Origin: an uncultured Spirochaetota bacterium
GTDB lineage: Bacteria > Spirochaetota > Spirochaetia > SZUA-6 > Fen-1364
Assembly: GCA_963734545.1 (NCBI GenBank)
Contig: CAVTHO010000004.1
Span: forward strand, 608,001 to 672,000
DNA: 64,000 nucleotides
Reading direction: 5' to 3'
Part shown: piece after piece, positions 4,439-19,666 of the stretch
How positions within the stretch are numbered: position 1 is the first letter of the stretch
How the letters are laid out: each line of letters starts with the position of its first letter
Notes under the pieces: model-generated
Seen by the model: the letters and a program-made list of their open reading frames with translations, nothing else
What the model was told of the DNA's origin: nothing
Databases searched by the model: none
Translations under genes and position numbers: made by a program

Positions 4439-4702
4439 ATGGAACCAGACAAGGGGAACGAGTTCAAGGTCAAGGGCGAAGAGCTGCTCAAAAAGATCAA
4501 AGACATCGTCCACGAGGGAAATGTCCGCAAGATCATCATCAAGGACGACAAGGGCACGCCCTACATGGAGATTCCGCTTACGTTCGGCGTGGTCGGGGCC
4601 CTTATTGCCCCCGTGCTGGCCGCGGTGGGAGCGCTTGCCGCGCTGGCGTCCAACTTTACCCTGGAGATCGTGCGCAAGGACGGGGATTCCAAGACCACCT
4701 AG
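4439..4702 (+). CDS. DUF4342 domain protein
   Basis: ELLKKIKDIVHEGNVRKIIIK..EIPLTFGVVGALIAP pattern; GGAGG RBS. Confidence 0.85.
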   Translation: MEPDKGNEFKVKGEELLKKIKDIVHEGNVRKIIIKDDKGTPYMEIPLTFGVVGALIAPVLAAVGALAALASNFTLEIVRKDGDSKTT

Positions 4703-4896
4703 TAGCGGCGCGAACCTCCCAGGATCCGGGACGGCAGAAAAAGGATTGCCTTGATGAGCGCCAGGACTGCATCCATCGTCATGCCCACTACCCGGAAGGG
4801 CAGCAGCACCAGCCACGCAATGGGGTAGAGCACGAGAACAACAAGGGCCAGCGGCCAGCAGATCAGGACCAGCAGCAGCCAGATCAGGAATCTCAT
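4699..4896 (-). CDS. Small hydrophobic membrane protein
   Basis: 65-aa, very hydrophobic ORF (CWPLAL..LYP..WLVLLPFR) whose stop overlaps the neighbouring gene. Confidence 0.65.
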   Translation of the reverse strand: MRFLIWLLLVLICWPLALVVLVLYPIAWLVLLPFRVVGMTMDAVLALIKAILFLPSRILGGSRRY

Positions 4897-5012
4897 GGGT
4901 GTGAGGGTAGACGGACCGCCCGGTGATTGTCAATTCAAAGCACACATCCGAGGGGCAAAATCCGTCTCCCGCGGGGTTGTATATCGGTCACCAGAAAGAC
5001 AAGGAGGATGTC

Positions 5013-5306
5013 ATGTCTGACCTCAATGCGAAGGTCGAGCTTGCGCACAAGATCGCGGAGCGCAAGCTGGCGTTCATACGGCACGCAATCAGCTACCTGG
5101 TCGTCATCATCGGCCTGGCCATCGTCAACAACCTCGGCTATGCGAGCGACGGGCCGCGGTACCAGTGGTGGCTCTGGGTGGCGTTCGGATGGGGAATCGG
5201 CGTCGTCTCTCATTTCCTCTCCGCATTCCTCTACCAGTCCGGCAACCTTGTGGAAAAGATGGCGAAACGCGAGCTGGAGAAGATGAATGAGTCGAACAAG
5301 ACTTAG
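5013..5306 (+). CDS. 2TM domain protein
   Basis: AAGGAGG RBS before ATG 5013; HAISYLVV..WWLWVAFGWGIGVVSH pattern. Confidence 0.8.
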   Translation: MSDLNAKVELAHKIAERKLAFIRHAISYLVVIIGLAIVNNLGYASDGPRYQWWLWVAFGWGIGVVSHFLSAFLYQSGNLVEKMAKRELEKMNESNKT

Positions 5307-6192
5307 CCCCATCGACATCCTCGGGATCACTTTGGGAGTCATCGTCATCCTCATCGTCATCGGCAGCGTGGTCGTGATCGCGCAGGGCCGGATGTTCGAC
5401 TTCAGATGGTCGATTCCCGAGCTGCGCGGCTCCTGGGCGCGCCCGCAGGCCTCCATCGGCGGCCCGGTACGGGAAGAAAAGGACGAGAAAATAGCGGGAG
5501 ACTTCGCGGAGATCGAGGTGCGCACCATCGCCGGCTCCATAGCGATCAGCGGGACCTCCGCCGGCGGGGTGAACGTGCACTCCGTGAAGACCGCGATGTT
5601 CCGCAATGCAGCCGACAATGTTCATGTCGAAATCCGGAAACAGGGGAACCGCCTCGTCGTGGAGGAGAAGCACGAGCCGCGTTTCTTCTTTCCCTCCGGC
5701 ACGATCTCGTTCCAGGTCGTGATCCCCCGGGGCGTGAAGCTCATCGATGCGCACTCCGTCAGCGGAAGCATCACGGTGCATGATGTCCTGTCGGGCATCG
5801 ATCAGAGCCTGAGCACGATTTCAGGATCCGTCTCCACGAGCCGCGCGCACAACCTGAGCGCATCCAGCACGAGCGGTCAGATCCAATTCGCCTCGGACGG
5901 CGGCTCTCTCAGCGCGCGCACCGTTTCCGGCTCGATCAATGGTGACATAGACTCCCTTGAAAAAGGGGGTTCCGCACGCCTCGCCACGGTTTCCGGCTCG
6001 GTCACCCTGAACGCGTTCCCCGGCCTGGACGCTAAAATCTCCCTTCATTCGGTGAGCGGGCGCGTTTCCTGTGATTTCCCCGTCACGATCTCCGAGCAGA
6101 AGAACAACCGTCTGGAGGGAACGATCGGCGCGGGGGCGGCCAGCCTGGACGCGGGCACGATCAGCGGAAGCATCAGCATCAACAAGAAGTAG
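5287..6192 (+). CDS. DUF4097 (adhesin-like beta-strand repeat) membrane-anchored protein
   Basis: N-terminal TM helix and repeated (T/S)(V/I)SGS(I/V) units. Confidence 0.85.
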   Translation: MSRTRLSPIDILGITLGVIVILIVIGSVVVIAQGRMFDFRWSIPELRGSWARPQASIGGPVREEKDEKIAGDFAEIEVRTIAGSIAISGTSAGGVNVHSVKTAMFRNAADNVHVEIRKQGNRLVVEEKHEPRFFFPSGTISFQVVIPRGVKLIDAHSVSGSITVHDVLSGIDQSLSTISGSVSTSRAHNLSASSTSGQIQFASDGGSLSARTVSGSINGDIDSLEKGGSARLATVSGSVTLNAFPGLDAKISLHSVSGRVSCDFPVTISEQKNNRLEGTIGAGAASLDAGTISGSISINKK

Positions 6193-6277: not shown

Positions 6278-9200
6278 ATGGCAACCGACAAGAGAAAGCA
6301 TACACGTGTCAGTCACCGCGACACGGTGGAGCTCACATCAGGGTCGTACACGTTCTCCGGAACCTCCGTCAACGTCAGTACGAGCGGAATGCAGGTGGTT
6401 GTCCGGCTGCCGGAGTCTCATGATTCGATCCGCAGCATAGCCTTCCAGATCCCCGGCTCCGGCGAACGCGTCGAGCTGCCCTGTCGCCTGATTCGCAATT
6501 CGGAACACGATGTCGAGGGTGACCAGGTCCTGGGCCTCGAATTTCTCTACGAAGCGGATGCCCAGCTCCTGCTCATCGAGAAGTTCATCCAGGATACCCA
6601 GCGCAGCAGGGACGATGCACGCGAGCTTCCCCGGACCTCCTGCCACCTGGACGATGTCACGGTCGAAAACCAGGCGGTCGAGGTTCTCTCCATTGACAAC
6701 CTCTCCACCGAGGGAATGCTTCTCAGCTATCGCGGAAACCTGAGACAGGGCGACCCGCTCACCGTGAGCGTGGGCATTCCGGGGGACGAGCGCCGCCTGC
6801 GCCTGACGGGCGTCGTGGTGTACGTGATGGAGAACGTGCTTCGGGGATCTTTGACGGCGGGCTTGCGGCTGTCGGTCATGAAAGAGACCGAGGAACGCAG
6901 ACTGAGGAATCTCATCGTCGCCTGCTCCTCGGGGAGCGCGATACGCGGCCTGCACCAGCACATTCATTCCAGGACGCTGGAACCCGAGTCCCGAATAACA
7001 GATCCGGTCCTGATCAGCGACATCCTGCAGGCTCTGCAAGTGGAATGCGTGCGCCTGAGCACGCTGGTAGAAGGTTCCTTCACCATCCTCGAGCATGAGG
7101 TTGAGGGCGTTGACCAGGACCTGCGGCGGTTCACGATCAAGCCGGACAGAGCGCTCGTCTCGCGCGCCCTCACACCGGGTGTAGCGGTGTACTTCAGCTT
7201 CTACAGGAACAAGGCCAGCTACTACTTCAAGGCGGAAGCCGCCTCCGCCAGCGACCAGCTCTTGAGCTTCCCTTTTCCCGTCGTCGTGTTCCGCACGGAC
7301 AAGAGATCCTACCAGAGAAAGCCGCTGCAGAACGTCTCTCGCGTGAGGCTGGGGGTCCTCGGAGAGAAGTCGGAAAGGCATACCTTCGAGGGGACATTGA
7401 TCGACATCAGCCGCAGAGGGTTTCTCTGCGAGCTTCATCTCACCGCCGAATCCCAGGCATTATTTCAGAAGGGAAAAGGCATTCATTACACCGTGGACGA
7501 CAGGCTGGGTCTGGGAAGCGAAGGCCAGATCCGACACCTGAAGGCTCTGCCTTCACCCGAAGGCGTTATGCTCCAGGTCGGTGTGGAGGCGGGAATCGGC
7601 AGAAACGCGGTGCGTTCCCGCCGCATCCCGGATGCAGAATGGGAAGAAGGGAACTCGAGCAGGAACTGGCCGCCCGGTCCTGAAAGGCACATCGAGTCCC
7701 ACGTCGTGAGGTTCCCTGACAGGGACGGCCATGAAATCTGCGCCTTCCTCAACGCCACCGAGCTGCGGGTCAAAGCTCCCGTCGTCATCATCCCCTCGGC
7801 ATACGGGAAAAAGAAGGAAGCATTTTCTCCCCTCGTGGCGACCCTGCTCGCGAGCTTCTGGAGCGAGGGAAAGAACATCGTCACGCTGCGCTTCGACGGC
7901 ACCAACCGCCCGGGGGAAAGCTACCAGGAGGAAAGCAATCCACGGCGCGGGTACGAAATGCTCTCCTACAGGATCAGCCAGGGGCTCGGCGATCTCCAGG
8001 CGGCCCTGGACTTCGTACGCGACAACCCGTACTTCATCGCGGAAAAGGTGATCATGGTCTCCTTCAGCATGTCCGCCATTGACGTGCGGCGCCTGCTGAG
8101 CAGGGACGAGGAAAGTGGTGTCGACTACTGGATCAGCGTCATGGGGGTTCCCGCTGCGCAGACCACGCTCCGCAACATCCTGGGCGGCATCGACATCATC
8201 AGCAATTACCGCCTGGGGATTCCGAACGGCATCATCGGGCTGCTGGGGCATCTCATCGACATGGACATCATGGCGGCAGATGTGGTGGACAAGAAATACG
8301 CCTTCCTCACCGACGCGCGCCTGGACATGTCGCGCATCGCCATTCCCGTTCTGTGGATCTACGGCGTGTACGACAAGTGGGTGGAGATGGACGAGGTCAA
8401 GGACCTGATGTCGGTCAAGGCGCGCGGGACACGCGAGACGCTCGAGATCCCCACCGGGCACAACCTGCGCACCAGTGACGACGCCATCCAGACCTTCAAG
8501 CTGATCGCCAGCTCCATCCATGAAAAGCTGTACGGAAAACAGGTCACGGCGCGCGACCCCTGGAAAGAAGAGATGATGCGCGTGCTCACGGAGGAACGCG
8601 AGCGGCTTGAGAACAGGGCGGCTCCCCCGCTCACGGACTACTGGCGCGGGTACCTCCTCGGCAACGAGAGGAACACGGTCGGGTACGATTTCTATCGCCA
8701 TATCCCGGAGTTCAAGTCGTTTTTCAGAACACAGGCAAAATGCCTGTCGCTGGAGGCGGAGGAGATCGTTGCAGACCTGGGCTGCGGCACGGGAATCTTC
8801 CTGGAGGAGCTCCTGGACTTCATTGCGGGCAGGGAAGAGCGAACATCGGTACGAGAGATCACGGCAATCGACCTTATTCCGGACGCTCTGGACAGGACAA
8901 GGGCAAAGTGCGAAAGGATCGTCGCGAGGCACCCCGGCCTGGCTGAAATCGGCTTCCGGTATGTCCAGAAGAACCTGGAGCCCAACAGGCTCATCCCCGT
9001 TGCGCGTTTCATTGAATCAGATGCGCCGTCACTCGAGTCGCTTCGCAACAGGATCGAGGGGCTTTCCAGCAGAGTGCTCGACCGCCTCATCGAGCGAACC
9101 CCACCGGGGCTGCTGGAGGTGATGCGCGGTGCGGTCTCGGAAGAGATGATCTCAGGGCTTGCATCGACCCTGGAGCCGGTGGAGATGCAGACGGTACTGG

Positions 9201-9793
9201 AGTTCAACAGGGCGGCGCGCTTCCTGCAGAATCGGATCGGGCCCCGGGACATCAGGCCGGAGCGCCAGGCCGCGCAGATCGCCCCCGGCAGCCTGCGCAC
9301 GAGCGACCTGTTGTTCGAGACTCTGAGCTTCGACGACTGTGATTCCGTCCTGACCCTGGGGCTGCCTGAGAATCACTTCACAAAGATCGTCGCGAGCCTC
9401 TTCATCTCCTACCTTCGCAATCCAGACTACGCCCTTGCCGAGTGCCATCGCATGCTCACGCCGGGGGGGACCCTCGTGGTGTCCTCCATGAAACCCGACA
9501 GCGATATCTCCACGATATTCACCAACTATATACGAAAGGTGCTGAACCCAAGCTGCCCCGAAGAGGGCGAGAAGGACGACGAAGGCAGCGCCAGCGCTGC
9601 CCGGGCCATGCTCAACGAAGCGGCGAGCCTGTTCGAGCTGGAAGAAGACGGCTTCTTCAAGTTCTACACTGCGGATGAGCTGACAAAGCTGCTTTCCAGC
9701 GCCGGATTCGACGAAATCAGGGTGTTTCCTTCGATGGGAAACCCGGCCCAGGCAAATGTCGCGGTTGCAAGAAAAAGGTTGACAAAATCTTAG
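6278..9793 (+). CDS. Multidomain protein: three PilZ domains, LuxD-like alpha/beta hydrolase (acyl-thioesterase/transferase), class I SAM methyltransferase
   Basis: PilZ motif pairs RKHTR/NVSTSG, RELPR/NLSTEG and RSYQR/DISRRG. Hydrolase motifs SFSMSA, YDKWV, TGHNL. Methyltransferase motifs VADLGCGTG and ECHRMLTPGG. Confidence 0.85.
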   Translation: MATDKRKHTRVSHRDTVELTSGSYTFSGTSVNVSTSGMQVVVRLPESHDSIRSIAFQIPGSGERVELPCRLIRNSEHDVEGDQVLGLEFLYEADAQLLLIEKFIQDTQRSRDDARELPRTSCHLDDVTVENQAVEVLSIDNLSTEGMLLSYRGNLRQGDPLTVSVGIPGDERRLRLTGVVVYVMENVLRGSLTAGLRLSVMKETEERRLRNLIVACSSGSAIRGLHQHIHSRTLEPESRITDPVLISDILQALQVECVRLSTLVEGSFTILEHEVEGVDQDLRRFTIKPDRALVSRALTPGVAVYFSFYRNKASYYFKAEAASASDQLLSFPFPVVVFRTDKRSYQRKPLQNVSRVRLGVLGEKSERHTFEGTLIDISRRGFLCELHLTAESQALFQKGKGIHYTVDDRLGLGSEGQIRHLKALPSPEGVMLQVGVEAGIGRNAVRSRRIPDAEWEEGNSSRNWPPGPERHIESHVVRFPDRDGHEICAFLNATELRVKAPVVIIPSAYGKKKEAFSPLVATLLASFWSEGKNIVTLRFDGTNRPGESYQEESNPRRGYEMLSYRISQGLGDLQAALDFVRDNPYFIAEKVIMVSFSMSAIDVRRLLSRDEESGVDYWISVMGVPAAQTTLRNILGGIDIISNYRLGIPNGIIGLLGHLIDMDIMAADVVDKKYAFLTDARLDMSRIAIPVLWIYGVYDKWVEMDEVKDLMSVKARGTRETLEIPTGHNLRTSDDAIQTFKLIASSIHEKLYGKQVTARDPWKEEMMRVLTEERERLENRAAPPLTDYWRGYLLGNERNTVGYDFYRHIPEFKSFFRTQAKCLSLEAEEIVADLGCGTGIFLEELLDFIAGREERTSVREITAIDLIPDALDRTRAKCERIVARHPGLAEIGFRYVQKNLEPNRLIPVARFIESDAPSLESLRNRIEGLSSRVLDRLIERTPPGLLEVMRGAVSEEMISGLASTLEPVEMQTVLEFNRAARFLQNRIGPRDIRPERQAAQIAPGSLRTSDLLFETLSFDDCDSVLTLGLPENHFTKIVASLFISYLRNPDYALAECHRMLTPGGTLVVSSMKPDSDISTIFTNYIRKVLNPSCPEEGEKDDEGSASAARAMLNEAASLFELEEDGFFKFYTADELTKLLSSAGFDEIRVFPSMGNPAQANVAVARKRLTKS

Positions 9794-9806
9794 ATCCTTC
9801 TACAAT
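9779..9806 (+). promoter_or_regulatory. Near-consensus sigma70 promoter for the ligase-ACP genes
   Basis: TTGACA (9779-9784), N16, TACAAT (9801-9806); AGAGGA RBS before ATG 9845. Confidence 0.65.
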
Positions 9807-9844: not shown

Positions 9845-11239
9845 ATGATTGGCATAGGGCAAGCCATCAGCGCCTCTCTCCGCGATTGGGGTGATTGGCC
9901 CGCTTTCCTTCAAGTAAGCAAGGCCCGCGGGATCTCTTCCACCTCTTCCGCCGCGTTCTCAGCGAGAATCATCGAGATTGCCCGACAACTCTCGGCCTGG
10001 GGGATTCGGGAAAAGTACCTGGTTCCCCTGTTCCTCGACAACTCAACCGACTTCATCACCATATTCCTGGCCCTGCTCCACATCGGCGCCATCCCTGTCC
10101 TGGTGAAGCGGGAGTACAGGGCCCTGGAGCTGGATGAGATCTTCAGCAATGCCCGTCCCCAGGCCGTGATCACCGAACAGGAGCACATGCGGCTCCTGAC
10201 GCCCTACCTCCGCGACACAATTGTCATTATGCGGTCGGAAAGCCGATTCTCCCTGACGCAATCCGCCGAGGGCCTGCAGTGCCGTGAGGACATCCCGGAT
10301 GACATTGCCTCCATCAACTACACGTATCGAGGATACGGCTACACCCTGGGCGCCATGGTCTCCCACGCTCAGTACCTGCACGGCGCACGGGTGCTGCAGG
10401 ACGGCCTCCAGGCATCAGCGGGAGAAAAGATGCTCATCATCCTGCCGATGGCCCATATCTTCACGATGGTGGGCTGCATTCTCGTCCCTCTGCTCTTCCG
10501 AATGACCAGCGTGATCGTGGACTCCCTGCACCCGCGGCTCCTCTTCCAGTACATCCGCGACTTCCGCATCGAGCACGTGACGTCCGTGCCGGAGATCTAT
10601 GAGCTGCTCTACCGGCTGCGCGACCCTGCCGCGGACCTGTCCTCTCTCAAGGTCTTTGTGTCGGGCGGAAGCCTCCTGACCCCGGACAGCTATTCGACCC
10701 TGACCCGGGCCTTTTCCGTCGACCTGCTTCACGGGTACGGACTGACGGAGTTCACGCCGGTCAGCCGCAACGTGCGCCACGCGGCCAGGCCGGGAACCGT
10801 CGGGCCGCTCTGCGACCAGGTAGAGTGCCGGATAGACCCGGCAGGTCCGGACGGGGCCGGAGAGATCCTGATCAGGACGCCGCACGAGATAGGCAGGTAC
10901 TACCACAGGCCGCGCGAGTCCGACGAAGCGCGGCGCGATGGCTGGTTTCGCACAGGGGATATGGGCCGCATGGACGACGGCCACTTGGTGTTCGTGAAAG
11001 AGCTGAAGAATACGAGAAAAATCAACGGCAACCTCGTGGACATGGAAGAGGTCAGCCGCGCGTTCCGGCTGGACAAGGACGTGGCGGAGGTGCAGGTGGG
11101 GTGGGAAAACAACTCCCTTTTTGCAAACCTTGCATTGAGCCGGCATATCGACTTTGAAGAAAAGACGAAACGGCTGAAGACCTCGCTGCGGGACGTTCTT
11201 GCGGAGTACAAGATACCCCGGCGCTTGAGCGTGTTGTAG
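9845..11239 (+). CDS. Class I adenylate-forming enzyme (acyl-CoA/acyl-ACP ligase-like) with degenerate P-loop
   Basis: Motifs LPMAHIF, VSGG, GYGLTE, GWFRTGDMG and YKIPR. The A3 loop reads YTYRGYGYTLG. Confidence 0.82.
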   Translation: MIGIGQAISASLRDWGDWPAFLQVSKARGISSTSSAAFSARIIEIARQLSAWGIREKYLVPLFLDNSTDFITIFLALLHIGAIPVLVKREYRALELDEIFSNARPQAVITEQEHMRLLTPYLRDTIVIMRSESRFSLTQSAEGLQCREDIPDDIASINYTYRGYGYTLGAMVSHAQYLHGARVLQDGLQASAGEKMLIILPMAHIFTMVGCILVPLLFRMTSVIVDSLHPRLLFQYIRDFRIEHVTSVPEIYELLYRLRDPAADLSSLKVFVSGGSLLTPDSYSTLTRAFSVDLLHGYGLTEFTPVSRNVRHAARPGTVGPLCDQVECRIDPAGPDGAGEILIRTPHEIGRYYHRPRESDEARRDGWFRTGDMGRMDDGHLVFVKELKNTRKINGNLVDMEEVSRAFRLDKDVAEVQVGWENNSLFANLALSRHIDFEEKTKRLKTSLRDVLAEYKIPRRLSVL

Positions 11240-11252
11240 GAGGCACGGAAAC

Positions 11253-11528
11253 ATGGGCAATGTACAGGAATACCAGAGCGCGACGCAATTCAAGAATGCA
11301 ATCAAGCAGATCGTGTCACGGATCTCCCGGATCGATGTGGCGGAGCTGGATGACGGGCTCTTGATACGCGAAGAGCTGGGAATCGACAGCCTGATGGCAA
11401 TGGAGATCATTGCCACCTGCGAAAAGCTGCTGGGTTTTAGGATTGATGAAACACTATTCGCCGACGTGAAGACAGTAGAAGATTTCTTCGAGCTTCTCAT
11501 GACCCTCGTAGGGAGGGTGAATGCGTAA
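11253..11528 (+). CDS. Acyl carrier protein
   Basis: ELGIDSL phosphopantetheine-Ser motif; acidic 91-aa protein; GGAGG RBS. Confidence 0.9.
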   Translation: MGNVQEYQSATQFKNAIKQIVSRISRIDVAELDDGLLIREELGIDSLMAMEIIATCEKLLGFRIDETLFADVKTVEDFFELLMTLVGRVNA

Positions 11529-11705: not shown

Positions 11706-13037
11706 TCAGGCCAGTTGTTTGTATATTTCCTTGAAATAGGCCGACCTGTCCCTGAAAGCCCTCTCGTTGAATATCTGGCGATATGCCCAGATAAAGCCGT
11801 CTTCGAGCTGCTCCTTGGTCATTCCCTTTGGCCGGAAGGTGACGTCGAGGAACGTACAGCGCTCCCAGAACGGCTCGGGGTAGAGGAACCTGTCCTCTTC
11901 CTTCAATCGTTCATACATTCGTGACCCCGGCAGCGGGGTGGCCACCGTCAGCTGGCCGGTCAGCTGGTTTCGGTTCATGAAGTCGACAACGCGGCTGAAC
12001 ACCCCCTGGTTGTCGTGGTCGAGGCCAAAAATAAACGAGCTGAACACCACGATGCCGTGCTCCTGGATGCGGCGCACATGCGCCTCGTAATTCGGAAGCT
12101 GGCGCAGCTTCCAATCATTGCGGTTCATCCCTGATAGATTCTGGGGATCGAGACTTTCGAAACCGATGAGCAGGAAAAGACATCCGGAACGGTAGATCTG
12201 CTGGAGAAGCTCTTCGTCCGCGCCAATGGCGATATCCGTTTGGCCGATCCAACGGACCTTGAGCTCCTCAAGCGCCACCAGAAGCTCCTTGGCGAATCGT
12301 CGATCGGTGAACAGGTTGTCATCAGCGAAGAGGATGAGGCGGTTCGGGACACTGCGTCTTATCGCAGCAATTTCGTTGCGAACCTGAAGTATGGTCTTTT
12401 TGCGCGGCTTCTTTCCGTAGATCCCGGTTACCAGGCAGAACTCGCAATCGTGTGGGCAGCCCCTGCTCGCCTGGACCGGCACAAAGTTGTAGAAGTGTTC
12501 CGGGTCGAGCAGTGTCTTGCTTCCACTCAGAAGATCGTAGCGAGGCAATGGCGATGTGGTGAGATCTATGTAATGACCCGCAGTGTTGCGGTAGATTTGT
12601 TGCGGCTCCCCATTCTGAAAGTCCTGGAGGAAGCGGGGCCAGAGCTCCTCGGCCTCGCCGACGACGACCGTGTCAGCACGGGAAGCGGCCTCTTGTGGCA
12701 TCATGGTGGCGTGACTTCCCCCGATGACAACATAGACGCCCCGGGCCCGGAACTCAGCAGCGATTTGATAGGCACGGACGATAGTCTGAGTCATTGCAGT
12801 GATCCCGACCAGGTCGTAGTTCGCCGTGTAGTCTATCGGAGCAAAGTCTTCGTGGACGATCTCGACGTCGATGGCTGGCGGAGTCAAGCCGGCTATGGTG
12901 AGCAGACTCAAAGACGGCGAGTACCAAGCCTTCAAGAACTTGTGGCACTCACGCAGTGCAAGCGTTATCTTCTCGGTCTTTGCCCAGACATCACGTCTTG
13001 GATTTATCAGGCATATTCGACTCAATGTGCGGCGCAC
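11706..13037 (-). CDS. B12-binding domain radical SAM protein
   Basis: N-terminal cobalamin-binding domain (DLVGIT, GGSHAT, VVVGEAE); ASRGCPHDCEFC CxxxCxxC; DDN; IGFES. Confidence 0.9.
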   Translation of the reverse strand: MRRTLSRICLINPRRDVWAKTEKITLALRECHKFLKAWYSPSLSLLTIAGLTPPAIDVEIVHEDFAPIDYTANYDLVGITAMTQTIVRAYQIAAEFRARGVYVVIGGSHATMMPQEAASRADTVVVGEAEELWPRFLQDFQNGEPQQIYRNTAGHYIDLTTSPLPRYDLLSGSKTLLDPEHFYNFVPVQASRGCPHDCEFCLVTGIYGKKPRKKTILQVRNEIAAIRRSVPNRLILFADDNLFTDRRFAKELLVALEELKVRWIGQTDIAIGADEELLQQIYRSGCLFLLIGFESLDPQNLSGMNRNDWKLRQLPNYEAHVRRIQEHGIVVFSSFIFGLDHDNQGVFSRVVDFMNRNQLTGQLTVATPLPGSRMYERLKEEDRFLYPEPFWERCTFLDVTFRPKGMTKEQLEDGFIWAYRQIFNERAFRDRSAYFKEIYKQLA

Positions 13038-13211
13038 GGGCGCGAGTATATGACGCAGCGATCTCCCGGCGCAAGGGCAATCTCGAGACGCAGCGCGGGA
13101 GGATCCTGACCAGGGGCTTCTGCAAGCGTGCGAAAGGGTATATGATGCTGGAAATGCCCGGCGCGCTCAGTATTTCTGGAAGGTGTGAGAAAATACCATA
13201 GAAAGGCGAGA

Positions 13212-15726
13212 ATGAGCTCAGAGAATCCGGCTCTCTCAAGCGACCTATCCTCTCTCCACGCCGGATTCGAGGCGGAAACCAGGGAAAAAGCGATTCGAGA
13301 CCTTCGTCTCGTCGTAGTGATCGCGGGTGTTTTCTACATGCTCTTCCTCATTCTCGACTATTTCGCGTATCCCGGCCTATTTCTCACTTTTCTGCTGATA
13401 CGGTGCATAGTCGTTTTCGGCAGTGGGCTGATTTTTCTTCTGATGTGGACACCAATGGGCACAGCGCACCCCCGCCTTTTCGCGATGCTTGAATACCTGT
13501 TGTGCGGCTCGGGCATCATGGTGATGGTTCATCTTTCAGGCGGTTACACCAGCTCGTACTATGCCGGCGTCATCCTGGTCCTGCTGTTTTTCATTTCCAT
13601 CCTACCCCTGGACGACAAGAGAACCCTGTTCATATGCGTGATTCTCTACGCAATGTATCTCGTGCCGATCCTCGCGCTGCAGAGGATCGTCCGATTCGAT
13701 ATATTCCTGAACAACAACTTCTTTCTCTTCACCACGATCGCTCTTGTAGTCCTCAGCTCGCAACTTGCCACCCAGATGCGGTTTCGGGAGTTCAGCGGCA
13801 GATTCAATCTTGCCCGCGCAAATGAGGAGCTGAAGAAGCTCGACGTCCTGAAGTCCCAGTTCTTCGCGAACGTGAGCCACGAGGTCCGCACTCCCCTCAC
13901 CTCCATCCTGTCGCCCATCCAGAGCCTGTACCAGGGAGACCTTGGGCCCCTGGTTCCCGAGCATCAAATGCTCATCGGACAGGTCTACCGCAACGCGCTG
14001 AAGCTGCTCGATATGATCAACCAGATGCTCGATTTCTCGAAATTCGAAGCACGCAAGATGCAGCTCCGTCTCAAGCACGTCGACATAGACGAGCTGGCAC
14101 GGGACATCGTGACGACCTTCCAGGACGTCACGGAGCGGAAGGGATTGAAGCTGCGCTACGTGGTTGAGGGGGAATTGCCGCCCGCATACCTGGACGCGGA
14201 AAAGCTCGAGCGAATCCTTACCAATCTGATTCGAAACGCCATCAAGTTCACAGAGAGCGGGTCCATTACCGTCCGGGTCGGCGCCACGCCGGTGAACCGG
14301 TGGCTCGAAGTCAGGGACACCGGCATCGGCATTCCGATGCAGCATCTTGCGAATATCTTCAACAGGTTCCAGCAGGTGGACTCCTCCTCCACGCGAAAAT
14401 ACGAAGGAACGGGGCTCGGTCTCACGATCGTCAAGGAGTCGGTGGAGCTGATGCAGGGGAGCGATCAATGTCCAGAGCGAGGAAAGGCGGGGCACGACGT
14501 TTCGGATCGAGCTGCCGGCAAACCTGGATCAGCTTGCCCCGGACGCGTTCGTCGACAGGAGGAAGGACGCGCAGCGCCGGCAGCCCGCTGATGAGTTCGA
14601 CGGCGACGAAAAAAGAAGGAAAGCGCGGCGTGAATCGGACCTGGCGCGGATCACCGTGGATGATCTTGCCCTTATCGAGAAAGAGACCATCGACCGCGAA
14701 GCAAAGGACGGCCGCGTCCCTGCGCACGATGGGAACGGCAACGCCGACCACATCCTGCTCGTGGAGGACAACGTCGACCTCAGGGCCTACATCAGCAAGA
14801 TGCTCTCCCGGTTCGGGCATGAAGTGGCCACGGCCATCGACGGACTGGACGGCTGGGAGCATGCACAGACGGACCTCCCCGATCTCGTGGTGTCGGACAT
14901 CATGATGCCGCGCATGGACGGCTACGAGCTGGTGGGCCGGATCAAGTCCACTGACACGACCCGGCATATCCCGGTGATCCTGATCACGGCGAAGCCGGAG
15001 ATCGAATCCAAGCTGGAAGGGCTGCAGAAGGGCGCGGACGACTATCTGCCCAAGCCCATCAACATCCGCGAGCTGGACGCCCGCATCCGGAACCTTCTCG
15101 TGACCCGGAACCTCCAGCAGGCGCTGGCGCGTGAAGCCGAGCTGGGCGCGCGGATGGAAGAGCTCAGCATGAGCTTCTCCCAATCACTGGAGATCCGGGA
15201 CTTCAACACTGCCGGCCATTCGCGTGACGTCCTGTACCTGGGCACGATCATCGCGGAAGGAATCGGCATCCCGGTGGACCGCATGCTGAAGGATTCACTT
15301 CTCCTGCACGATATCGGCAAGCTGGGCATACCCGACCGGATTCTCCTCAAGGAGTCGCCGCTGAACGAGGAGGAGTGGAAGATCATGAGAACCCACCCCG
15401 AGCTGGGGGCGAGCCTGCTCGGGCACTTCGAGTCCTATCGGGAGATAAGCAGCATCATCCTCGCGCACCAGGAGCACCTGAACGGCACCGGCTATCCACG
15501 GGGATTGAAGGGCGACGAGATCCCCCTGTTCGCCCGGATCATCGCCATCGCGGATGCCTACCACGCAATGACCAGCAACCGCCCGTACCGCAAGGCGCTC
15601 CCGGCGAGCAGGGCAGTGCTCGAGCTCACGCGGAACCGCGGCACGCAGTTCGATGCCGCGCTCGTCGATGCCTTCATAAAGGGTCTCCTGCAGCGCAGGA
15701 TCATTACGATGGAAGACATCATGTGA
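13212..15726 (+). CDS. Membrane sensor histidine kinase fused to REC and HD-GYP phosphodiesterase domains; frameshift at ~14459
   Basis: About six TM helices, H-box SHEVRTPL, N/G boxes (NAIKFT, DTGIG, GTGLGL). Removing one G from GGGG at 14456-14459 gives MQGAINVQSEERRGTTFRIELP in frame with ORF 14656-15726, which carries REC VSDIMMP, HDIGK and HLNGTGYP. Confidence 0.85.
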
Positions 15727-15765: not shown

Positions 15766-16797
15766 TCAGGGCAGCCGGTTGAACCACAGCAGAGAGAGCG
15801 TACCGGCGAGCAGGAGCAGCGCTATTGCGATTGCCGTAAACAGCGCGGTGACCTCGGTCTGGTCCTTCCCCACGATGAGGCGGGTGCTCAGGGATTTGTA
15901 GATTTTTATCAGGTCCCCGGCGTCGTTCGCCTTGAAATACTGCCCGCCCGTGTTCTGCGCAATTCTCTTCAGGCTCGCCTCGTCGAGTCCCACACGGAAC
16001 GAGCGGCCTTCGAAGCCGATGACGTCTCCCCGCGCGCTTCCCAGCCCCACGGTGAATATGCGGATTCCCCGGTTGGCCGCTTTCTCCGCCGCGTCCAGCG
16101 GATCGGGTCCCTGGTTGTTCTGTCCGTCGCTGAGCAGGACGATGACCGCGGAATTGTTCGAACCGGGCGCAACCGGATCCGGTTCAGGCGGTGACGGCGG
16201 TGCCGGCAGCAGCGGATCACTCGGAGCCGACAGGGAGGCAGGGGTCTGACCTGGCTGCTCATCCTCCAGAATGGCGTCCAAGGCGACGAGGATCCCGCTT
16301 CCGATGGCCGTTCCCCGCTGGAGCATGAGACGCTCGATCGCGCCGCGTATGTCCTCCCGGGCGGTGGTCGGTGCCTGTACCAGTGCCGCTGTCCCGCTGA
16401 AAGCGGCGACCCCGATCCGCACCCGGGGCGGCTGCTTGTTTACGAATTCGAGCGCCGCCTGTTTTGCCGCCTCCATCCGGGTCGGCTTGATGTCCTGCGC
16501 GCGCATGCTTCCCGAGATGTCCATGGCAAGGATCACCGTGCCCCTGTTCGAGGGCAGGGAGATGGTGGCAAGCGGGCGCGCCAACGCGAAGATCATGACT
16601 GTCAGCGAGACCAGGAAAAGCAGGGCCGGGATGTGCCGGCGAAAGCCGGGGCCCCGGCCAAGGGCATCCTTCACGAGCATCAGGCTCGCATAGCGGATTG
16701 CGAACTTCTGCCGGCGTCTCTGCGCCCAGAGGTAGAAAAGAACGAGCACCGGCACGAGCAGCAGGAACCAGAGCATCGAGGTCCATTGAAATGTCAT
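15766..16797 (-). CDS. VWA domain membrane protein (BatA-like)
   Basis: MIDAS motif DISGSM, LLSDG, N- and C-terminal TM helices. Confidence 0.88.
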   Translation of the reverse strand: MTFQWTSMLWFLLLVPVLVLFYLWAQRRRQKFAIRYASLMLVKDALGRGPGFRRHIPALLFLVSLTVMIFALARPLATISLPSNRGTVILAMDISGSMRAQDIKPTRMEAAKQAALEFVNKQPPRVRIGVAAFSGTAALVQAPTTAREDIRGAIERLMLQRGTAIGSGILVALDAILEDEQPGQTPASLSAPSDPLLPAPPSPPEPDPVAPGSNNSAVIVLLSDGQNNQGPDPLDAAEKAANRGIRIFTVGLGSARGDVIGFEGRSFRVGLDEASLKRIAQNTGGQYFKANDAGDLIKIYKSLSTRLIVGKDQTEVTALFTAIAIALLLLAGTLSLLWFNRLP

Positions 16798-17726
16798 GAC
16801 ACTTCCCGCAGGCCGTGCGCGGCACGGGAGGCCGGTGCCGCGCGGCGCTGTTTGCGCTCAATGGCGAACCGGACGATTTCCCTCGCCATGTCGCCCTCCG
16901 TGGACAATGAGAGGAGCTCGACGCCCCGACGGGCGAGCAGGCTGTCGAGCTCCTCACGCCTCTTGCGGGCGGCCGCGGCGAACCGCCTCCTGAAACCGTG
17001 GTCGTGCGTGTCGAGGAAGAGCTGCTCGCCCGTTTCCGCGTCCTCGAACACGATGGCGCCCACGTCCGGGAGCTCCGACTCCCGCGGGTCGGAGAGCCGC
17101 ACCCCGAGGATCTCGTGTCTGCGGGTGAGCATGTCCAGCGGCTTGTCCCAGCCCGTCACGCTGAGAAAGTCGGACACGACGAACAGCAGGGAACGCCGGC
17201 CGATGATGCGGAGGGCCGATTCGAGGAGCAGGGAGAGGTCGGTCTGGGGCGCGCGCTGAAGCCGGGGCTGACCCTGAAGCTCCTGGATGAGGCGCAGGAC
17301 ATGGGTCCGCCCGCCCCGCGCGGGAATGGTGCGCGCGGGCGCGCCGCTGAAGATCAGCGCCCCTACCCGGTTTCCGTGCCGCGTGAGCAGCCGCGCAAGG
17401 ACGCCGACGAAGTCGACGAGCAGCTTCCTCTTGTCCGTGGCAACCGTGCCGAAGTCCACCGAGGGGCTCATGTCGAGGAGGAACCACGCGGTGACCTCCC
17501 TGTCCTCCATGTACTGCCGCACGTAGGGGGTCTGCAGCCGCGCTGTCACGTACCAGTCGATCGTCCGCACGTCGTCGGTGAGCTGGTATTCGCGCAGGTC
17601 CGCCAGCTCGAGCCCGAAGCCGCGGAACAAGGTCCGATAGTTGCCCTGCAGGATCCCGTCGAGCCGGCGGATCACCGTCCAGTCCAGCCGCTGGAGAATC
17701 CTCTCGGGGTCAGAGGGCTGCGGCAT
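16794..17726 (-). CDS. DUF58 domain protein
   Basis: G..LADLREYQ..DDVRTIDW.VTAR motif; lies within the MoxR operon. Confidence 0.9.
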   Translation of the reverse strand: MPQPSDPERILQRLDWTVIRRLDGILQGNYRTLFRGFGLELADLREYQLTDDVRTIDWYVTARLQTPYVRQYMEDREVTAWFLLDMSPSVDFGTVATDKRKLLVDFVGVLARLLTRHGNRVGALIFSGAPARTIPARGGRTHVLRLIQELQGQPRLQRAPQTDLSLLLESALRIIGRRSLLFVVSDFLSVTGWDKPLDMLTRRHEILGVRLSDPRESELPDVGAIVFEDAETGEQLFLDTHDHGFRRRFAAAARKRREELDSLLARRGVELLSLSTEGDMAREIVRFAIERKQRRAAPASRAAHGLREVS

Positions 17727-18729
17727 GACTCTGCAGCGCCTGGGCGGGTGCGGGAACCGCCTGCATCACCTTCTGGATGATCGCATCGGTGCTCACCCCG
17801 TCGGAGAGGGCCTCGTAGGACGGGATGATGCGATGACGCATCACGTCGTGCACCATGTCGACGATGTCCTGGGGAATGACGTACGATCTCCCGCGCACGA
17901 AGGCCAGCGCGCGTCCGGCAATGACGAGATTGATCGAGGCGCGGGGGCTCGCGCCGTATACGATGTACTTCGCCACTTCCGGCACTCCATGCCTGTCCGG
18001 GCTGCGCGTGGCGGCGGCAAGCCGCACGGCGTACTGCACGAGCAGGGGGTCCACGAACACGCCCTCGCAGGCCTGGCGGAGCTGCAGGATCTGCTCGGTG
18101 GTCACGACCGCGGCCGGCTGGGCCAGCGCGGTCGTCATCCTCTGCACGATGACGAACTCCTCCGGCTCGCTGGGGTAGTCCACGAGGACTTTCATCATGA
18201 AGCGATCGACCTGCGCCTCGGGAAGCGGATAGGTCCCGTCCGTCTCGATGGGGTTCTGCGTTGCCATGACGAGGAAGGGTTCCGCGACCTTGAACGTCTC
18301 CCCGCCGATGGTCACCTGGCGCTCCTGCATGACCTCCAGGAGCGCGCTCTGCACCTTGGCAGGGGCGCGATTGATCTCGTCAGCGAGGAGCAGGTTGGCG
18401 AAAACGGGACCGAGGGACGTGCTGAACTCACCGGTCCGCTGATTGTAGATGCGTGTGCCCACCAGGTCCGCGGGAACGAGATCCGGTGTGAACTGGATCC
18501 TCTTGAATACCCCGTTCATCGCCGACGCGAGGGTCTTGACCGTCAGGGTCTTTGCCAGTCCCGGCACGCCCTCCACGAGCAGGTGGCCTTGAGAAAGGAG
18601 CGCGACGAGCACGCGCTCCAGAAGGTGGTCCTGCCCGACGATCACCTTCTTCACCTCGTAGAGTATCTTCTCCATGAGCTGTGCCTGCTCGAGGTAAGCT
18701 CCTTCCGCCCCAATGTGCATGCTTTCCAT
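17710..18729 (-). CDS. moxR: MoxR family AAA+ ATPase
   Basis: Motifs GVPGLAKT, RIQFTPDL, DEINRAPAKVQSALLE, ATQNP. Confidence 0.93.
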   Translation of the reverse strand: MESMHIGAEGAYLEQAQLMEKILYEVKKVIVGQDHLLERVLVALLSQGHLLVEGVPGLAKTLTVKTLASAMNGVFKRIQFTPDLVPADLVGTRIYNQRTGEFSTSLGPVFANLLLADEINRAPAKVQSALLEVMQERQVTIGGETFKVAEPFLVMATQNPIETDGTYPLPEAQVDRFMMKVLVDYPSEPEEFVIVQRMTTALAQPAAVVTTEQILQLRQACEGVFVDPLLVQYAVRLAAATRSPDRHGVPEVAKYIVYGASPRASINLVIAGRALAFVRGRSYVIPQDIVDMVHDVMRHRIIPSYEALSDGVSTDAIIQKVMQAVPAPAQALQSHAAAL

Positions 18730-18761: not shown

Positions 18762-19613
18762 CTAAACGGGGGGTGAGCCGACCACGCCGCCCGCCGTGTC
18801 GATGGGGACGGCGAAGCCGATCCCGATGAATACGTCCTGGTTTGTCGGATTCAAGAGCGATGTGACGATGCCCACCACTTCCCCGTTCCTGTTGACCAGA
18901 GGCCCCCCGGAGTTGCCGGGGTTCACCGCGGCATCGAACTGGATGAGGTTTTTCAGCGTGGCCCCTGTCTCACGGGAGGTGTACTGCCTGCCCAGGCCGG
19001 AGACGACACCGTCGGAGGTCGAAAAGAAGACCCCGAACGGGTTGCCCACCGCGATCACCTCGTCCCCGACGTGCAGGGAGGCCGAGCTCACGAGGGTCGC
19101 GGGCTTCAGGTCATCCGGCACCTTCATGGCGCTCAGCACCGCAAGGTCGTTCTCCGGCTGCCGCACCATCACCTGCGCATCCGACTCCGTGCCGTCCGCG
19201 AACACGACCTTCACCGAGGCGGCGTCCTTCACGACGTGAAGGCAGGTCAGGATGATGCCCGTGTCCACGACCACGACGCCGGCGCCCAGCGACGCGCGGG
19301 GCTTCCCGTCTCCGGGCACGACGGCCTCCACCGCCACGACGGACGGCAGAATGACGTCATAGGCGACCGAGGCATTCGAGGGTTTGGGCGGCGCGTTCTC
19401 GAGAGAGCGGTCCACCGCCGCGTCGATGTCTCTCTGGGTGAGTCGTTGCGGGACCGGCCGGAGCGCGTTGTAGACGAGGAGGGCAACGAGCGTGATGATG
19501 ATCTGGGCGGCTATGAGGAAAAGCGTCCGATGGCCCTGGTACGCGCCCCTGAGCCATTGACGGACAAGCTGCCAGTCTGAAGGCGGGCTCGCCTTAGGAT
19601 CTTCTATATACAC
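18762..19613 (-). CDS. Membrane-anchored trypsin-like (S1C/HtrA-type) serine protease without PDZ domain
   Basis: Catalytic triad motifs TCLHVV, DLAVL and NPGNSGGPL; one TM helix. Confidence 0.88.
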   Translation of the reverse strand: MYIEDPKASPPSDWQLVRQWLRGAYQGHRTLFLIAAQIIITLVALLVYNALRPVPQRLTQRDIDAAVDRSLENAPPKPSNASVAYDVILPSVVAVEAVVPGDGKPRASLGAGVVVVDTGIILTCLHVVKDAASVKVVFADGTESDAQVMVRQPENDLAVLSAMKVPDDLKPATLVSSASLHVGDEVIAVGNPFGVFFSTSDGVVSGLGRQYTSRETGATLKNLIQFDAAVNPGNSGGPLVNRNGEVVGIVTSLLNPTNQDVFIGIGFAVPIDTAGGVVGSPPV

Positions 19614-19666
19614 AGATGAAGATACTGCGATGCGGCGGCCGGGGGAAATAATATCCGGTTATCTTC

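Follow-up and report, generated by a model that had tools for sequence, protein, structure and literature searches.

A stretch of 64,000 nucleotides from an uncultured Spirochaetota bacterium (assembly GCA_963734545.1, contig CAVTHO010000004.1, positions 608,001 to 672,000, hereafter the window) carries, in a single open reading frame (ORF) at positions 6278..9793 of the forward strand, the gene for a protein of 1171 amino acids in which three PilZ modules are fused to a LuxD-like alpha/beta-hydrolase domain and a methyltransferase. We propose, with a probability of roughly 0.55, that this fusion protein is an enzyme gated by cyclic di-guanosine monophosphate (c-di-GMP) that unloads and methylates an acyl-carrier-bound product, and that an HD-GYP protein encoded in the same operon sets the local signal. 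A second-messenger-gated biosynthetic role had already been suggested by a sequence-only reading of this DNA, and it is strengthened here because the conserved operon of the fusion gene holds an acyl carrier protein (ACP), an enzyme of the ANL (AMP-binding) family, a B12-binding radical S-adenosylmethionine (radical-SAM) enzyme and an HD-GYP protein.

The frame contains 0 internal stops, and its Pfam domain content agrees with the fusion of PilZ, LuxD-like and methyltransferase parts that had been read at this position. The gene is present as a single copy in the genome (5.14 Mb in 10 contigs, 89% complete). Literature searches found no paper on the combination of PilZ and LuxD, nothing on the architecture of the fusion under PilZ, methyltransferase, hydrolase and domain architecture, and nothing relevant under PilZ, HD-GYP, ACP, methyltransferase and spirochaete. 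The positions of all features are collected in Table 1.

The sequence-only reading had likened the hydrolase region to LuxD, an acyl-ACP thioesterase. Acyl_transf_2 (PF02273), which is Pfam's LuxD family, is the only Pfam hydrolase family that scores above its cut-off of 20.3 bits, reaching 21.6 bits with the whole protein and 25.5 bits with the isolated domain. Within a set of 71 domain sequences, made up of the window's own and those of 70 further loci, the family matches 56 sequences at E <=0.01 (best E 1.9e-9), and FSH1, Hydrolase_4, DLH and Abhydrolase_1 match 17, 14, 3 and 1 of them, respectively. Searched against the Protein Data Bank (PDB), the profile of these 71 sequences gives one significant match, LuxD of Vibrio harveyi (1THT, E 6.5e-5), and the next match has an E-value of 0.2. 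Single-sequence phmmer searches of the PDB with the whole protein were weak (dienelactone hydrolase E 0.04, 1THT E 0.06), so that the family profile was needed to reach significance for 1THT.

Structure prediction leads to the same protein. The AlphaFold model of the hydrolase domain, computed from the 71-row alignment, has a mean predicted local distance difference test score (pLDDT) of 93.6, and its top match in Foldseek is 1THT (E 1.5e-14, template modelling (TM) scores 0.76/0.78, root-mean-square deviation (rmsd) 3.2). A VIA search of 48,161 chains, which is independent of Foldseek, likewise ranks 1THT first with a Z score of 28.2 and an rmsd of 2.6 over 263 aligned residues. The runners-up in this search are an uncharacterised hydrolase (7qjn, Z 27.2), Est1E (2wtm, Z 27.1), ferulic acid esterases (Z 26.4-26.6, among them 7z2u at 26.6) and monoacylglycerol lipases (7ozm and 6ax1, Z 24-25). 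Since the lead of 1THT over the esterases is narrow, the fold alone cannot fix the substrate class.

The comparison extends to the active site. The region has no GxSxG, as had been noted, and its nucleophile elbow reads S595-F-S597-M-S599. The triad that had been assigned from the letters, Ser597 (nucleotide 8066), Asp699 (8372) and His728 (8459), is invariant in 25 full-length and 71 domain sequences. Three of the five segments that had been aligned with LuxD by eye (SFSMSA with AASLSA, MGVPAAQ..L with VGVVNLRDTL and YDKWV with NDDWV) are reproduced by the profile alignment to 1THT; the printed alignment does not extend to RFDGTNRPGES and TGHNL. In this alignment serine stands on serine (vtfSmSa/iaaSlSa) and aspartate on aspartate (kyDkWv/nnDdWv), and the acylated residue of LuxD is Ser114 according to the accessible part of PMC6279958. 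In the model, Ser597 is placed between strand 126-135 and helix 138-148, Asp699 after strand 230-235 and His728 after strand 258-263 (domain numbering), which are the canonical positions of such a triad. The gene lies outside a lux operon, as had been claimed: its neighbours encode the ANL, ACP and radical-SAM proteins, and a search of the genome gave no full match to LuxE and two partial matches to the LuxE model (positions 281-383 of 391), LuxC not having been searched. Judged by its sequence, the domain is LuxD-like and falls outside the LuxD orthologue model.

For the C-terminal part, which had been taken for a methyltransferase, the Pfam models Methyltransf_11, _23, _25, _12 and _31 all score above their cut-offs, and motif I (DxGCGTG) is invariant in the family alignments. 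The model of this domain (mean pLDDT 90.5) matches Coq5, CmoA, MitM and RebM in Foldseek at E ~2e-8 with query-side TM scores of merely 0.3-0.4, which are low because an insert of about 135 residues separates two core strands. The helices of the insert lie between core strands 131-136 and 273-278 (model, domain numbering); the Methyltransf_23 match spans residues 825-1145, and the Pfam matches are split around the insert. It is absent from a subfamily of ~830-residue proteins described below, and an ESM Atlas search with the insert gave no usable match. Among the NCBIfam models, all of them below threshold, DVU_1556, CpaM and BioC match 70 of 70 members, UbiE types match as well, and the fatty-acid O-methyltransferase model Mtf2 matches 10 of 70, far below its cut-off. 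The BioC model (TIGR02072) reaches 33.7 bits against a cut-off of 184.95 and covers residues 260-313 of the domain, with a best E of 8.5e-13 across the members. Neither the NCBIfam scan nor Foldseek singles out a specific methyltransferase family.

The sensory part was analysed on an alignment of the first 470 residues with 53 relatives, whose identity to the window's protein goes down to 23%. Pfam PilZ (PF07238) is found in 3 stretches at 69 bits (cut-off 22.5 bits, E 5e-19) and is matched by all 53 relatives. Each of the three modules contains both c-di-GMP-binding motifs, RxxxR and [D/N]xSxxG, and the three motif pairs named in the sequence-only reading (R6KHTR10/N32VSTSG37, R115ELPR119/N141LSTEG146 and R343SYQR347/D376ISRRG381) are all present in the translation. 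R6, R10, S34, G37, R115, R119, S143, G146, R343, R347 and G381 are invariant in the alignment, and S378 is conserved to at least 90%. Modules 1 and 2 each have an own-genome PilZ match (C4:614287-614589 for the former; C4:614668-614916, which is 6668-6916 in the window, for the latter). The N-terminal profile matches the PilZ domain of MotI/YpfA (5vx6) at E 2e-5 and, at residues 247-425, both domains of PP4397 (3kyf and 2gjg, E 6.7e-5 and 8.6e-5), and it reaches YcgR and MrkH at E ~0.07-0.08. The match to PP4397 supports the YcgR/PilZN-like segment that had been proposed in front of the third PilZ module, though Pfam PilZNR matches just 3 and PilZN just 2 of the 53 members. With these motifs, at least one of the PilZ modules very probably binds c-di-GMP, and the genome of the host has 13 GGDEF matches, i.e. 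a c-di-GMP network. In two loci (L017 and L018, Desulfotignum and Desulfobacteraceae metagenome-assembled genomes (MAGs)) the tblastn match begins at query residue 113, so the first module may be missing there or may have diverged; the Desulfobacula proteins P0117 and P0118 retain it.

The conservation of the gene neighbourhood was counted by tblastn of the window's neighbours against 79 loci, which were kept from 187 stretches with a relative in a scan of one genome per species, and only loci with enough downstream DNA entered a count. Downstream of the fusion gene, 62 of 63 loci have an ANL protein, 60 of 61 an ACP, 53 of 55 a histidine kinase and 52 of 52 a REC-HD protein. Kinase and REC-HD-GYP share one open frame in 50 of 53 loci, with unbroken ORFs of 838 (L006), 840 (L005), 841 (L023) and 833 (L071) amino acids. 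The window's REC-HD-GYP part matches HD_5 at E 1.6e-35 and Response_reg at E 1.4e-27, with HD at residues 217-218 and GYP at 279, and the L023 orthologue matches the NCBIfam model of NosR-family c-di-GMP phosphodiesterases at E 1.2e-50, below its cut-off. As the kinase and the REC-HD-GYP protein stand beside the PilZ fusion, the operon probably encodes both a c-di-GMP receptor and a sensor-driven c-di-GMP phosphodiesterase. The hydrophobic segments of the kinase fill residues 36-191 and leave no space for a large periplasmic domain. In the ESM Atlas, its membrane part gives feature-level leads to MASE-type sensor clusters (scores 0.94-0.97; Pfam families in 11-61% of the cluster members), which we treat as a lead and not as a finding.

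The ANL protein departs from its family at the sites used for adenylation. At the P-loop position, NYTYRGYGYTLG stands opposite YTSGTTGRSKG and YTSGSTGRPKG of solved ligases, TYRGYGYTLG taking the place of the ANL P-loop TSGTTGxPKG. The A10 lysine, which ANL enzymes use for adenylation, sits in their C-terminal tail, and the operon's protein stops after YKIP, about 25 residues short of the aligned ligase end (position 478 of 506 in 4gxq). The variant P-loop and the short C-terminus are kept in 57 ANL orthologues, which retain GYGLTE and WFxTGD. Both features that adenylation requires, the P-loop and the A10 lysine, are thus lacking, and the protein probably cannot adenylate. Its closest solved relatives are the malonyl-CoA synthetases 4gxq and 4fut (E 2.5e-25 to 7.6e-24), and feruloyl- and fatty-acyl-CoA synthetases score just slightly below them. 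A complex prediction for the hydrolase domain and the ANL protein, with alignments as input, scored 0.00 against a mark of 0.32 and, having no controls, counts neither way.

Of 58 loci, 43 have a homologue of the radical-SAM gene on the + strand downstream of the fusion gene, a number that rises to 45 when the whole locus is considered. The window's copy is about 40% identical to the + strand operon copies of close relatives, in which the fusion protein has 75-89% identity to the one studied here (in L006, 42% for the radical-SAM enzyme and 89% for the fusion protein), and it is 64-66% identical to minus-strand copies upstream of the fusion gene in L005 and L068. From these identities the gene appears to have been exchanged or lost between related genomes. 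Its best NCBIfam matches, HpnJ, ApyD and PhpK, are far below their cut-offs, and we rejected an assignment of its reaction, the HpnJ, PhpK, ApyD, BchE and ladderane-type models all lying far below their cut-offs for the window's copy and the in-operon copies alike.

A homologue search with the fusion protein returned 183 matches; among the 120 matches listed, 118 have lengths of 1032-1328 amino acids and align over the entire query with 40-87% identity, their names, where given, are "PilZ domain-containing protein" or generic methylase or hydrolase labels, and their sources are mostly Spirochaetia/Spirochaetota MAGs with some Desulfobacula and Thermodesulfobacteriota. The 79 loci of the genome scan are likewise mostly from Spirochaetota, together with a few from Desulfotignum, Desulfobacula, a Leptospirales MAG, an Aminicenantes MAG and bins labelled Eubacteriales. 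In an even sample of the phylum, the fusion occurs in 8 of 401 genomes and 2 of 153 genera, its distribution within the phylum hence being patchy. A search for shorter homologues gave 60 matches, mostly short contigs or split pieces and none with an informative name. Run against 1.84 billion representatives, the hydrolase-domain profile matches 622 proteins at E <=0.001, of which 271 reach E <=1e-30. Of the 150 matches listed, 20 representatives were scanned, and in each of them the hydrolase match is followed by methyltransferase domains. Their N-termini have no PilZ (733-736 amino acids), one PilZ (~830 amino acids, with an uninterrupted methyltransferase), one or two PilZ (930-1090 amino acids) or REC and PilZ (P0311). 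The pair of hydrolase and methyltransferase is the constant core of the family, and the N-terminal sensors vary.

Fifteen members of the ~830-residue group have RxxxR, DxSxxG, the triad and motif I conserved. A metagenome scan for this group confirmed 128 stretches; 80 loci were retained from these, and 75 of them could be analysed. A homologue of the operon's multi-pass kinase lies nearby in 49 of the 75 loci (33-37% identity over 80-90% of the length); it is a HisKA-HATPase-REC hybrid without HD-GYP. An MMPL/HAE3-type resistance-nodulation-division (RND) transporter is found near the gene in 29 of 75 loci, and an exporter of the lipid type in this branch suggests that the product is hydrophobic. 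Hence, a sensor-headed hydrolase-methyltransferase and a multi-pass membrane kinase are the recurring partners in both subfamilies. The operon of the ~830-residue subfamily (L081-L160, e.g. L138:3598-17863) also contains a Trans_reg_C/AAA_16 regulator, an AAA-deaminase protein, which matches an anti-phage dCTP deaminase model below its cut-off, and two hybrid kinases beside the MMPL/HAE3 transporter, and a LolA-like protein is present in 5 loci.

In the mechanism that we infer from these data, the hydrolase domain would take an acyl group from a carrier-protein thioester onto Ser597 and then release it, the donor being either the operon's own ACP or, as in LuxD, the ACP of fatty-acid synthase. 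The methyltransferase would next methylate what has been released, and the simplest acceptor would be the carboxylate of the acyl product, which would become a methyl ester; that the product is indeed a carboxyl methyl ester we regard as a tentative and rather unlikely assignment. Binding of c-di-GMP to the PilZ modules would switch the activity either on or off. The acyl-carrier side would be supplied by the operon, with its probably non-adenylating ANL protein, its ACP and often the B12 radical-SAM enzyme for tailoring, and the phosphorylated kinase-REC-HD-GYP protein would lower local c-di-GMP and so couple a membrane or lipid signal to the enzyme.

Several observations weigh against this proposal. 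The identity of the hydrolase domain to LuxD 1THT is merely 15-17%, the Acyl_transf_2 match spans just model positions 76-220 of 294, and the NCBIfam LuxD equivalog model (NF052253, fatty acid reductase transferase subunit) scores 20 bits against a cut-off of 420, as PRK13604 does with 20.3 bits against 529. Feruloyl esterases, PETase and monoacylglycerol lipases lie about 1-4 Z below LuxD in the comparison of the model, so that the substrate could be an ordinary ester. With no specific family match for the methyltransferase, O-methylation of a carboxylate is a guess. An ANL protein that lacks the P-loop serine, threonines and lysine as well as the A10 tail leaves no obvious route for loading the ACP, and no ANL or ACP gene was found near the loci of the ~830-residue subfamily, from which it follows that the catalytic pair has no strict need for a carrier of its own. 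In the window itself, the radical-SAM gene is inverted and the gene for kinase and REC-HD-GYP is split by a frame break near 14452-14463, downstream of which the frame runs without a stop into the REC-HD-GYP part. At the break, contigs of relatives from four public runs (X1-X4, with 1, 2, 1 and 1 contigs) are one base shorter, with all of the depth there. The break is either an assembly error or a real mutation, which contigs of relatives cannot tell apart. In a search of sequencing runs, 20 were matched, no RNA run being among the matches listed, and since all of them share <0.2 of the sampled words, they come from relatives and not from the window's strain. The literature search, finally, found no experiment on any member of the fusion family.

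These points leave room for other functions of the same domains. The operon might use masking of the BioC/BioH kind, in which the ANL protein would load a dicarboxylate such as malonate onto the ACP, the methyltransferase would cap the free carboxyl as a methyl ester and, after the chain has been extended or tailored, the hydrolase would remove the methyl ester or the thioester, the two domains thus acting at opposite ends of a pathway. Esterase and methyltransferase are indeed the enzyme pairing of BioH and BioC, the ANL protein has its nearest solved relatives among malonyl-CoA synthetases, the ACP accompanies the fusion in nearly every locus, and the BioC model matches all 70 methyltransferase domains. 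This match, however, is confined to a generic core stretch and stays at less than a fifth of its cut-off, the malonyl-CoA synthetases score barely above the feruloyl- and fatty-acyl-CoA synthetases, the hydrolase is nearest to LuxD and not to a BioH-type family, and the ANL protein looks unable to adenylate, so that we hold such a masking route to be improbable. Less probable again is a hydrolase of general lipase or esterase function, akin to monoacylglycerol lipases or feruloyl esterases, that frees a fatty or aromatic acid for methylation, with ACP and ANL protein serving a separate step. The structural scores would accommodate it (7qjn at 27.2, 2wtm at 27.1, 7z2u at 26.6 and 7ozm/6ax1 at 24-25 against 28.2 for LuxD), as would a ~830-residue subfamily without ACP and ANL neighbours, whereas the profile is significant for LuxD alone (E 6.5e-5 against 0.2 for arylesterases), Acyl_transf_2 is matched by 56 of the 71 domains against 14 for Hydrolase_4 and 3 for DLH, the elbow that deviates from GxSxG is common to the domain and LuxD, and the linkage to ACP and ANL protein is almost invariable in the spirochaete type.

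The regulatory side and the target of methylation can be read differently as well. The PilZ modules might serve as protein-protein adaptors or bind other ligands, without gating by c-di-GMP and with an HD-GYP neighbour that is functionally unlinked. Some PilZ domains do act through protein contacts, the C-terminal helix of MapZ binding CheR in the accessible part of a PilZ survey (10.1101/814665), and the window's kinase/HD-GYP gene is frame-broken. The same part of the survey states that degenerate PilZ domains usually lose their binding motifs, whereas here both motifs persist in all three modules among the 53 relatives, as they do in the one module of the ~830-residue subfamily, and REC-HD-GYP is linked in 52 of 52 loci, which leaves this explanation only a small chance. 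We give still less credit to a reversible carboxyl-methylation of protein in the manner of CheR and CheB, in which the methyltransferase would modify a protein, be it the kinase or the ACP, and the hydrolase would remove the methyl ester. A methyltransferase is paired with an esterase here and a sensor kinase accompanies the fusion in both subfamilies, yet the methyltransferase fold matches small-molecule enzymes (Coq5, CmoA, MitM and RebM), the Pfam and NCBIfam scans found no CheR-type family, the hydrolase is nearest to an acyl-ACP thioesterase, and the partner genes (ACP, ANL, radical-SAM and MMPL) speak for a product that is small and hydrophobic.

If the proposed c-di-GMP-gated unloading and methylation is taken one step further, the operon may form a self-contained lipid-signal circuit wired through c-di-GMP, an extension that we regard as speculative and improbable as a whole. 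The PilZ-gated enzyme would release and methyl-esterify a chain built on the ACP and tailored by the radical-SAM enzyme to give a diffusible or membrane-resident signal, the multi-pass kinase would sense this product or the membrane state that results from it, and its fused REC-HD-GYP part would destroy c-di-GMP and thereby feed back on the synthase. In such a circuit, the ANL protein would pass acyl groups between the LuxD-like acyl-enzyme and the operon's ACP without adenylation. If true, the circuit would be an autoinducer or membrane-homeostasis loop of a new class, its acyl-processing enzyme being under direct control of a second messenger.

Some further observations concern the DNA around these genes. 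A sigma-70-like site with 11 of 12 matching positions (TTGACA, 16 nt, TACAAT) lies at 9779-9806 (+), at the 3' end of the fusion gene and just before the ANL gene. Between 5800 and 15900, the numbers of promoter-like sites (3 against 2.3 ± 1.5 in shuffles) and of terminator-like sites (10 against 6.6 ± 3.3) are not above chance and therefore carry no information on operon structure. Genes for DUF4342, 2TM-domain and DUF4097 ('toastrack') proteins stand directly upstream of the fusion at 4439-6192 (+); they are found beside it in 2, 1 and 0 of the 79 loci, respectively, and are not counted in the system. On the other side, a trio of BatA/VWA, DUF58 and MoxR-type AAA ATPase genes at 15766-18729 (-) occurs in no relatives other than the closest, L006 and L009, and at 18762-22000 (-) a trypsin-like peptidase of 283 amino acids adjoins a 777-residue protein with an N-terminal caspase (Peptidase_C14) domain.

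Table 1. Features of the fusion gene and its operon, in window coordinates
Feature	Position	Strand	Basis
Whole gene: PilZ, PilZ, PilZN-like segment, PilZ, LuxD-like hydrolase, methyltransferase	6278..9793	+	ORF and translation
PilZ module 1 (residues 4-104), R6xxxR10 and N32xS34xxG37	6287..6589	+	Pfam PilZ, best stretch 4-104
PilZ module 2 (~residues 113-215), R115xxxR119 and N141xS143xxG146	6614..6922	+	motif conservation, own-genome PilZ match
YcgR-N/PilZN-like segment (~residues 235-335), approximate boundaries	6980..7282	+	profile match to PP4397
PilZ module 3 (~residues 340-445), R343xxxR347 and D376xS378xxG381	7295..7612	+	Pfam PilZ stretch, aligns to PP4397 PilZ domain
LuxD-like alpha/beta-hydrolase domain (~residues 470-760)	7685..8557	+	Pfam Acyl_transf_2, profile match to 1THT, model fold
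Ser597 codon, predicted nucleophile	8066..8068	+	invariant; aligns with the serine of LuxD A-A-S-L-S-A
Asp699 codon, predicted triad acid	8372..8374	+	invariant; aligns with D of LuxD NDDWV
His728 codon, predicted triad base, in invariant G-H-N-L	8459..8461	+	invariant; position in model, not residue-level LuxD alignment
Class I SAM-dependent methyltransferase (residues 762-1171), motif I D833-L-G-C-G-T-G839	8561..9790	+	Pfam, model fold
Mostly helical insert of ~135 aa in the methyltransferase fold (~residues 898-1033)	8969..9376	+	split Pfam matches, model
Atypical ANL (AMP-binding family) protein, 464 aa, degenerate P-loop, no A10 lysine tail	9845..11239	+	Pfam AMP-binding, E 3.4e-48
Dedicated acyl carrier protein, 91 aa, D-S-L attachment site	11253..11528	+	Pfam PP-binding, E 2.9e-11
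B12-binding radical-SAM enzyme, 443 aa, between ACP and kinase	11706..13037	-	Pfam B12-binding and Radical_SAM
Multi-pass membrane sensor histidine kinase (HisKA and HATPase)	13185..14591	+	Pfam HisKA, HATPase_c; hydropathy
REC and HD-GYP, c-di-GMP phosphodiesterase type	14656..15726	+	Pfam Response_reg, HD_5, HD

Direct gating of an acyl- or lipid-processing enzyme by c-di-GMP would, if true, add a new output class to c-di-GMP signalling. The family suits testing, as one operon encodes the sensor, the two catalytic domains, the carrier, the tailoring enzyme and the phosphodiesterase that would remove the signal, and the recurrence of the catalytic pair with different sensor heads could show how PilZ modules control an enzyme allosterically. 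The system could further reveal a methylated acyl product and the cue of the multi-pass kinase, and an ANL protein with a conserved loss of its adenylation motifs presents a second biochemical puzzle.

When compared to characterized systems, the hydrolase domain most resembles LuxD, which unloads acyl-ACP onto Ser114 and whose free acid passes to an ATP-dependent synthetase, as described in the available excerpt of PMC6279958. LuxD is the best profile match among the solved structures and, by a narrow margin over other esterases, the top fold match by both methods, the two share an elbow without glycines (S-F-S-M-S here, A-A-S-L-S in LuxD) with aligned positions of serine and aspartate, and both genes stand beside a partner of the acid-activating type, which in the lux system is LuxE (PMC6279958, same excerpt). 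In contrast to LuxD, to which its identity is low, the domain is encoded outside a lux operon and is fused to three PilZ modules and a methyltransferase. A likeness also connects the C-terminal domains to BioC and BioH, which act on ACP-bound acyl chains, BioC being a malonyl-ACP O-methyltransferase and BioH a pimeloyl-ACP methyl ester esterase: in both cases a methyltransferase is combined with an alpha/beta-hydrolase, and the weak BioC match recurs in 70 of 70 members. The BioC score (33.7 against 184.95 bits), the nearness of the hydrolase to LuxD, the fusion itself, the PilZ modules and the operon set the two apart.

For the ANL protein, a precedent by description is PtmA2 of platensimycin biosynthesis, presented in the accessible text of PMC6594144 as a non-adenylating ANL enzyme that performs only the second, thioester-forming half-reaction; the operon's protein lacks the P-loop residues and the A10 lysine tail. 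In the operon of the fusion, no partner that makes an acyl-adenylate was identified. The Phc system of Ralstonia, where according to the accessible parts of PMC8578825 and PMC11960443 the methyltransferase PhcB makes methyl 3-hydroxymyristate and the sensor kinase PhcS detects it, offers a further analogy by description, in that a methyltransferase that would yield a fatty-acid methyl ester is encoded next to a membrane sensor kinase. Phc differs in having no PilZ, no LuxD-like domain, no ACP and ANL genes and no HD-GYP. The Rpf/DSF (diffusible signal factor) system of Xanthomonas comprises the sensor kinase RpfC, the REC-HD-GYP protein RpfG and the acyl-CoA ligase RpfB, and like the operon described here it combines fatty-acid-related genes with a sensor kinase whose output is a REC-HD-GYP phosphodiesterase. 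Here, however, a single polypeptide combines kinase, REC and HD-GYP in 50 of 53 loci, and the proposed c-di-GMP receptor is encoded in the same operon.

On the receptor side, the familiar outputs of PilZ proteins are motility, polysaccharide synthases, secretion and transcription; YcgR, MotI and PP4397 are stand-alone PilZ receptors, and BcsA and Alg44 carry PilZ fused to an output. The third module of the fusion appears to have the PilZN-PilZ build of PP4397 and YcgR, whereas the three tandem modules and an output consisting of an acyl hydrolase and a methyltransferase distinguish it from these effectors. The survey cited above (10.1101/814665) describes the joining of PilZ to output domains as an established path of evolution; it makes no mention of an acyl hydrolase and methyltransferase as the output, the word 'hydrolase' occurring in its accessible text 0 times and 'methyltransferase' once, there only for CheR as a binding partner. 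We read the fusion protein as a PilZ effector whose enzymatic output is new and which is served by an operon of its own.

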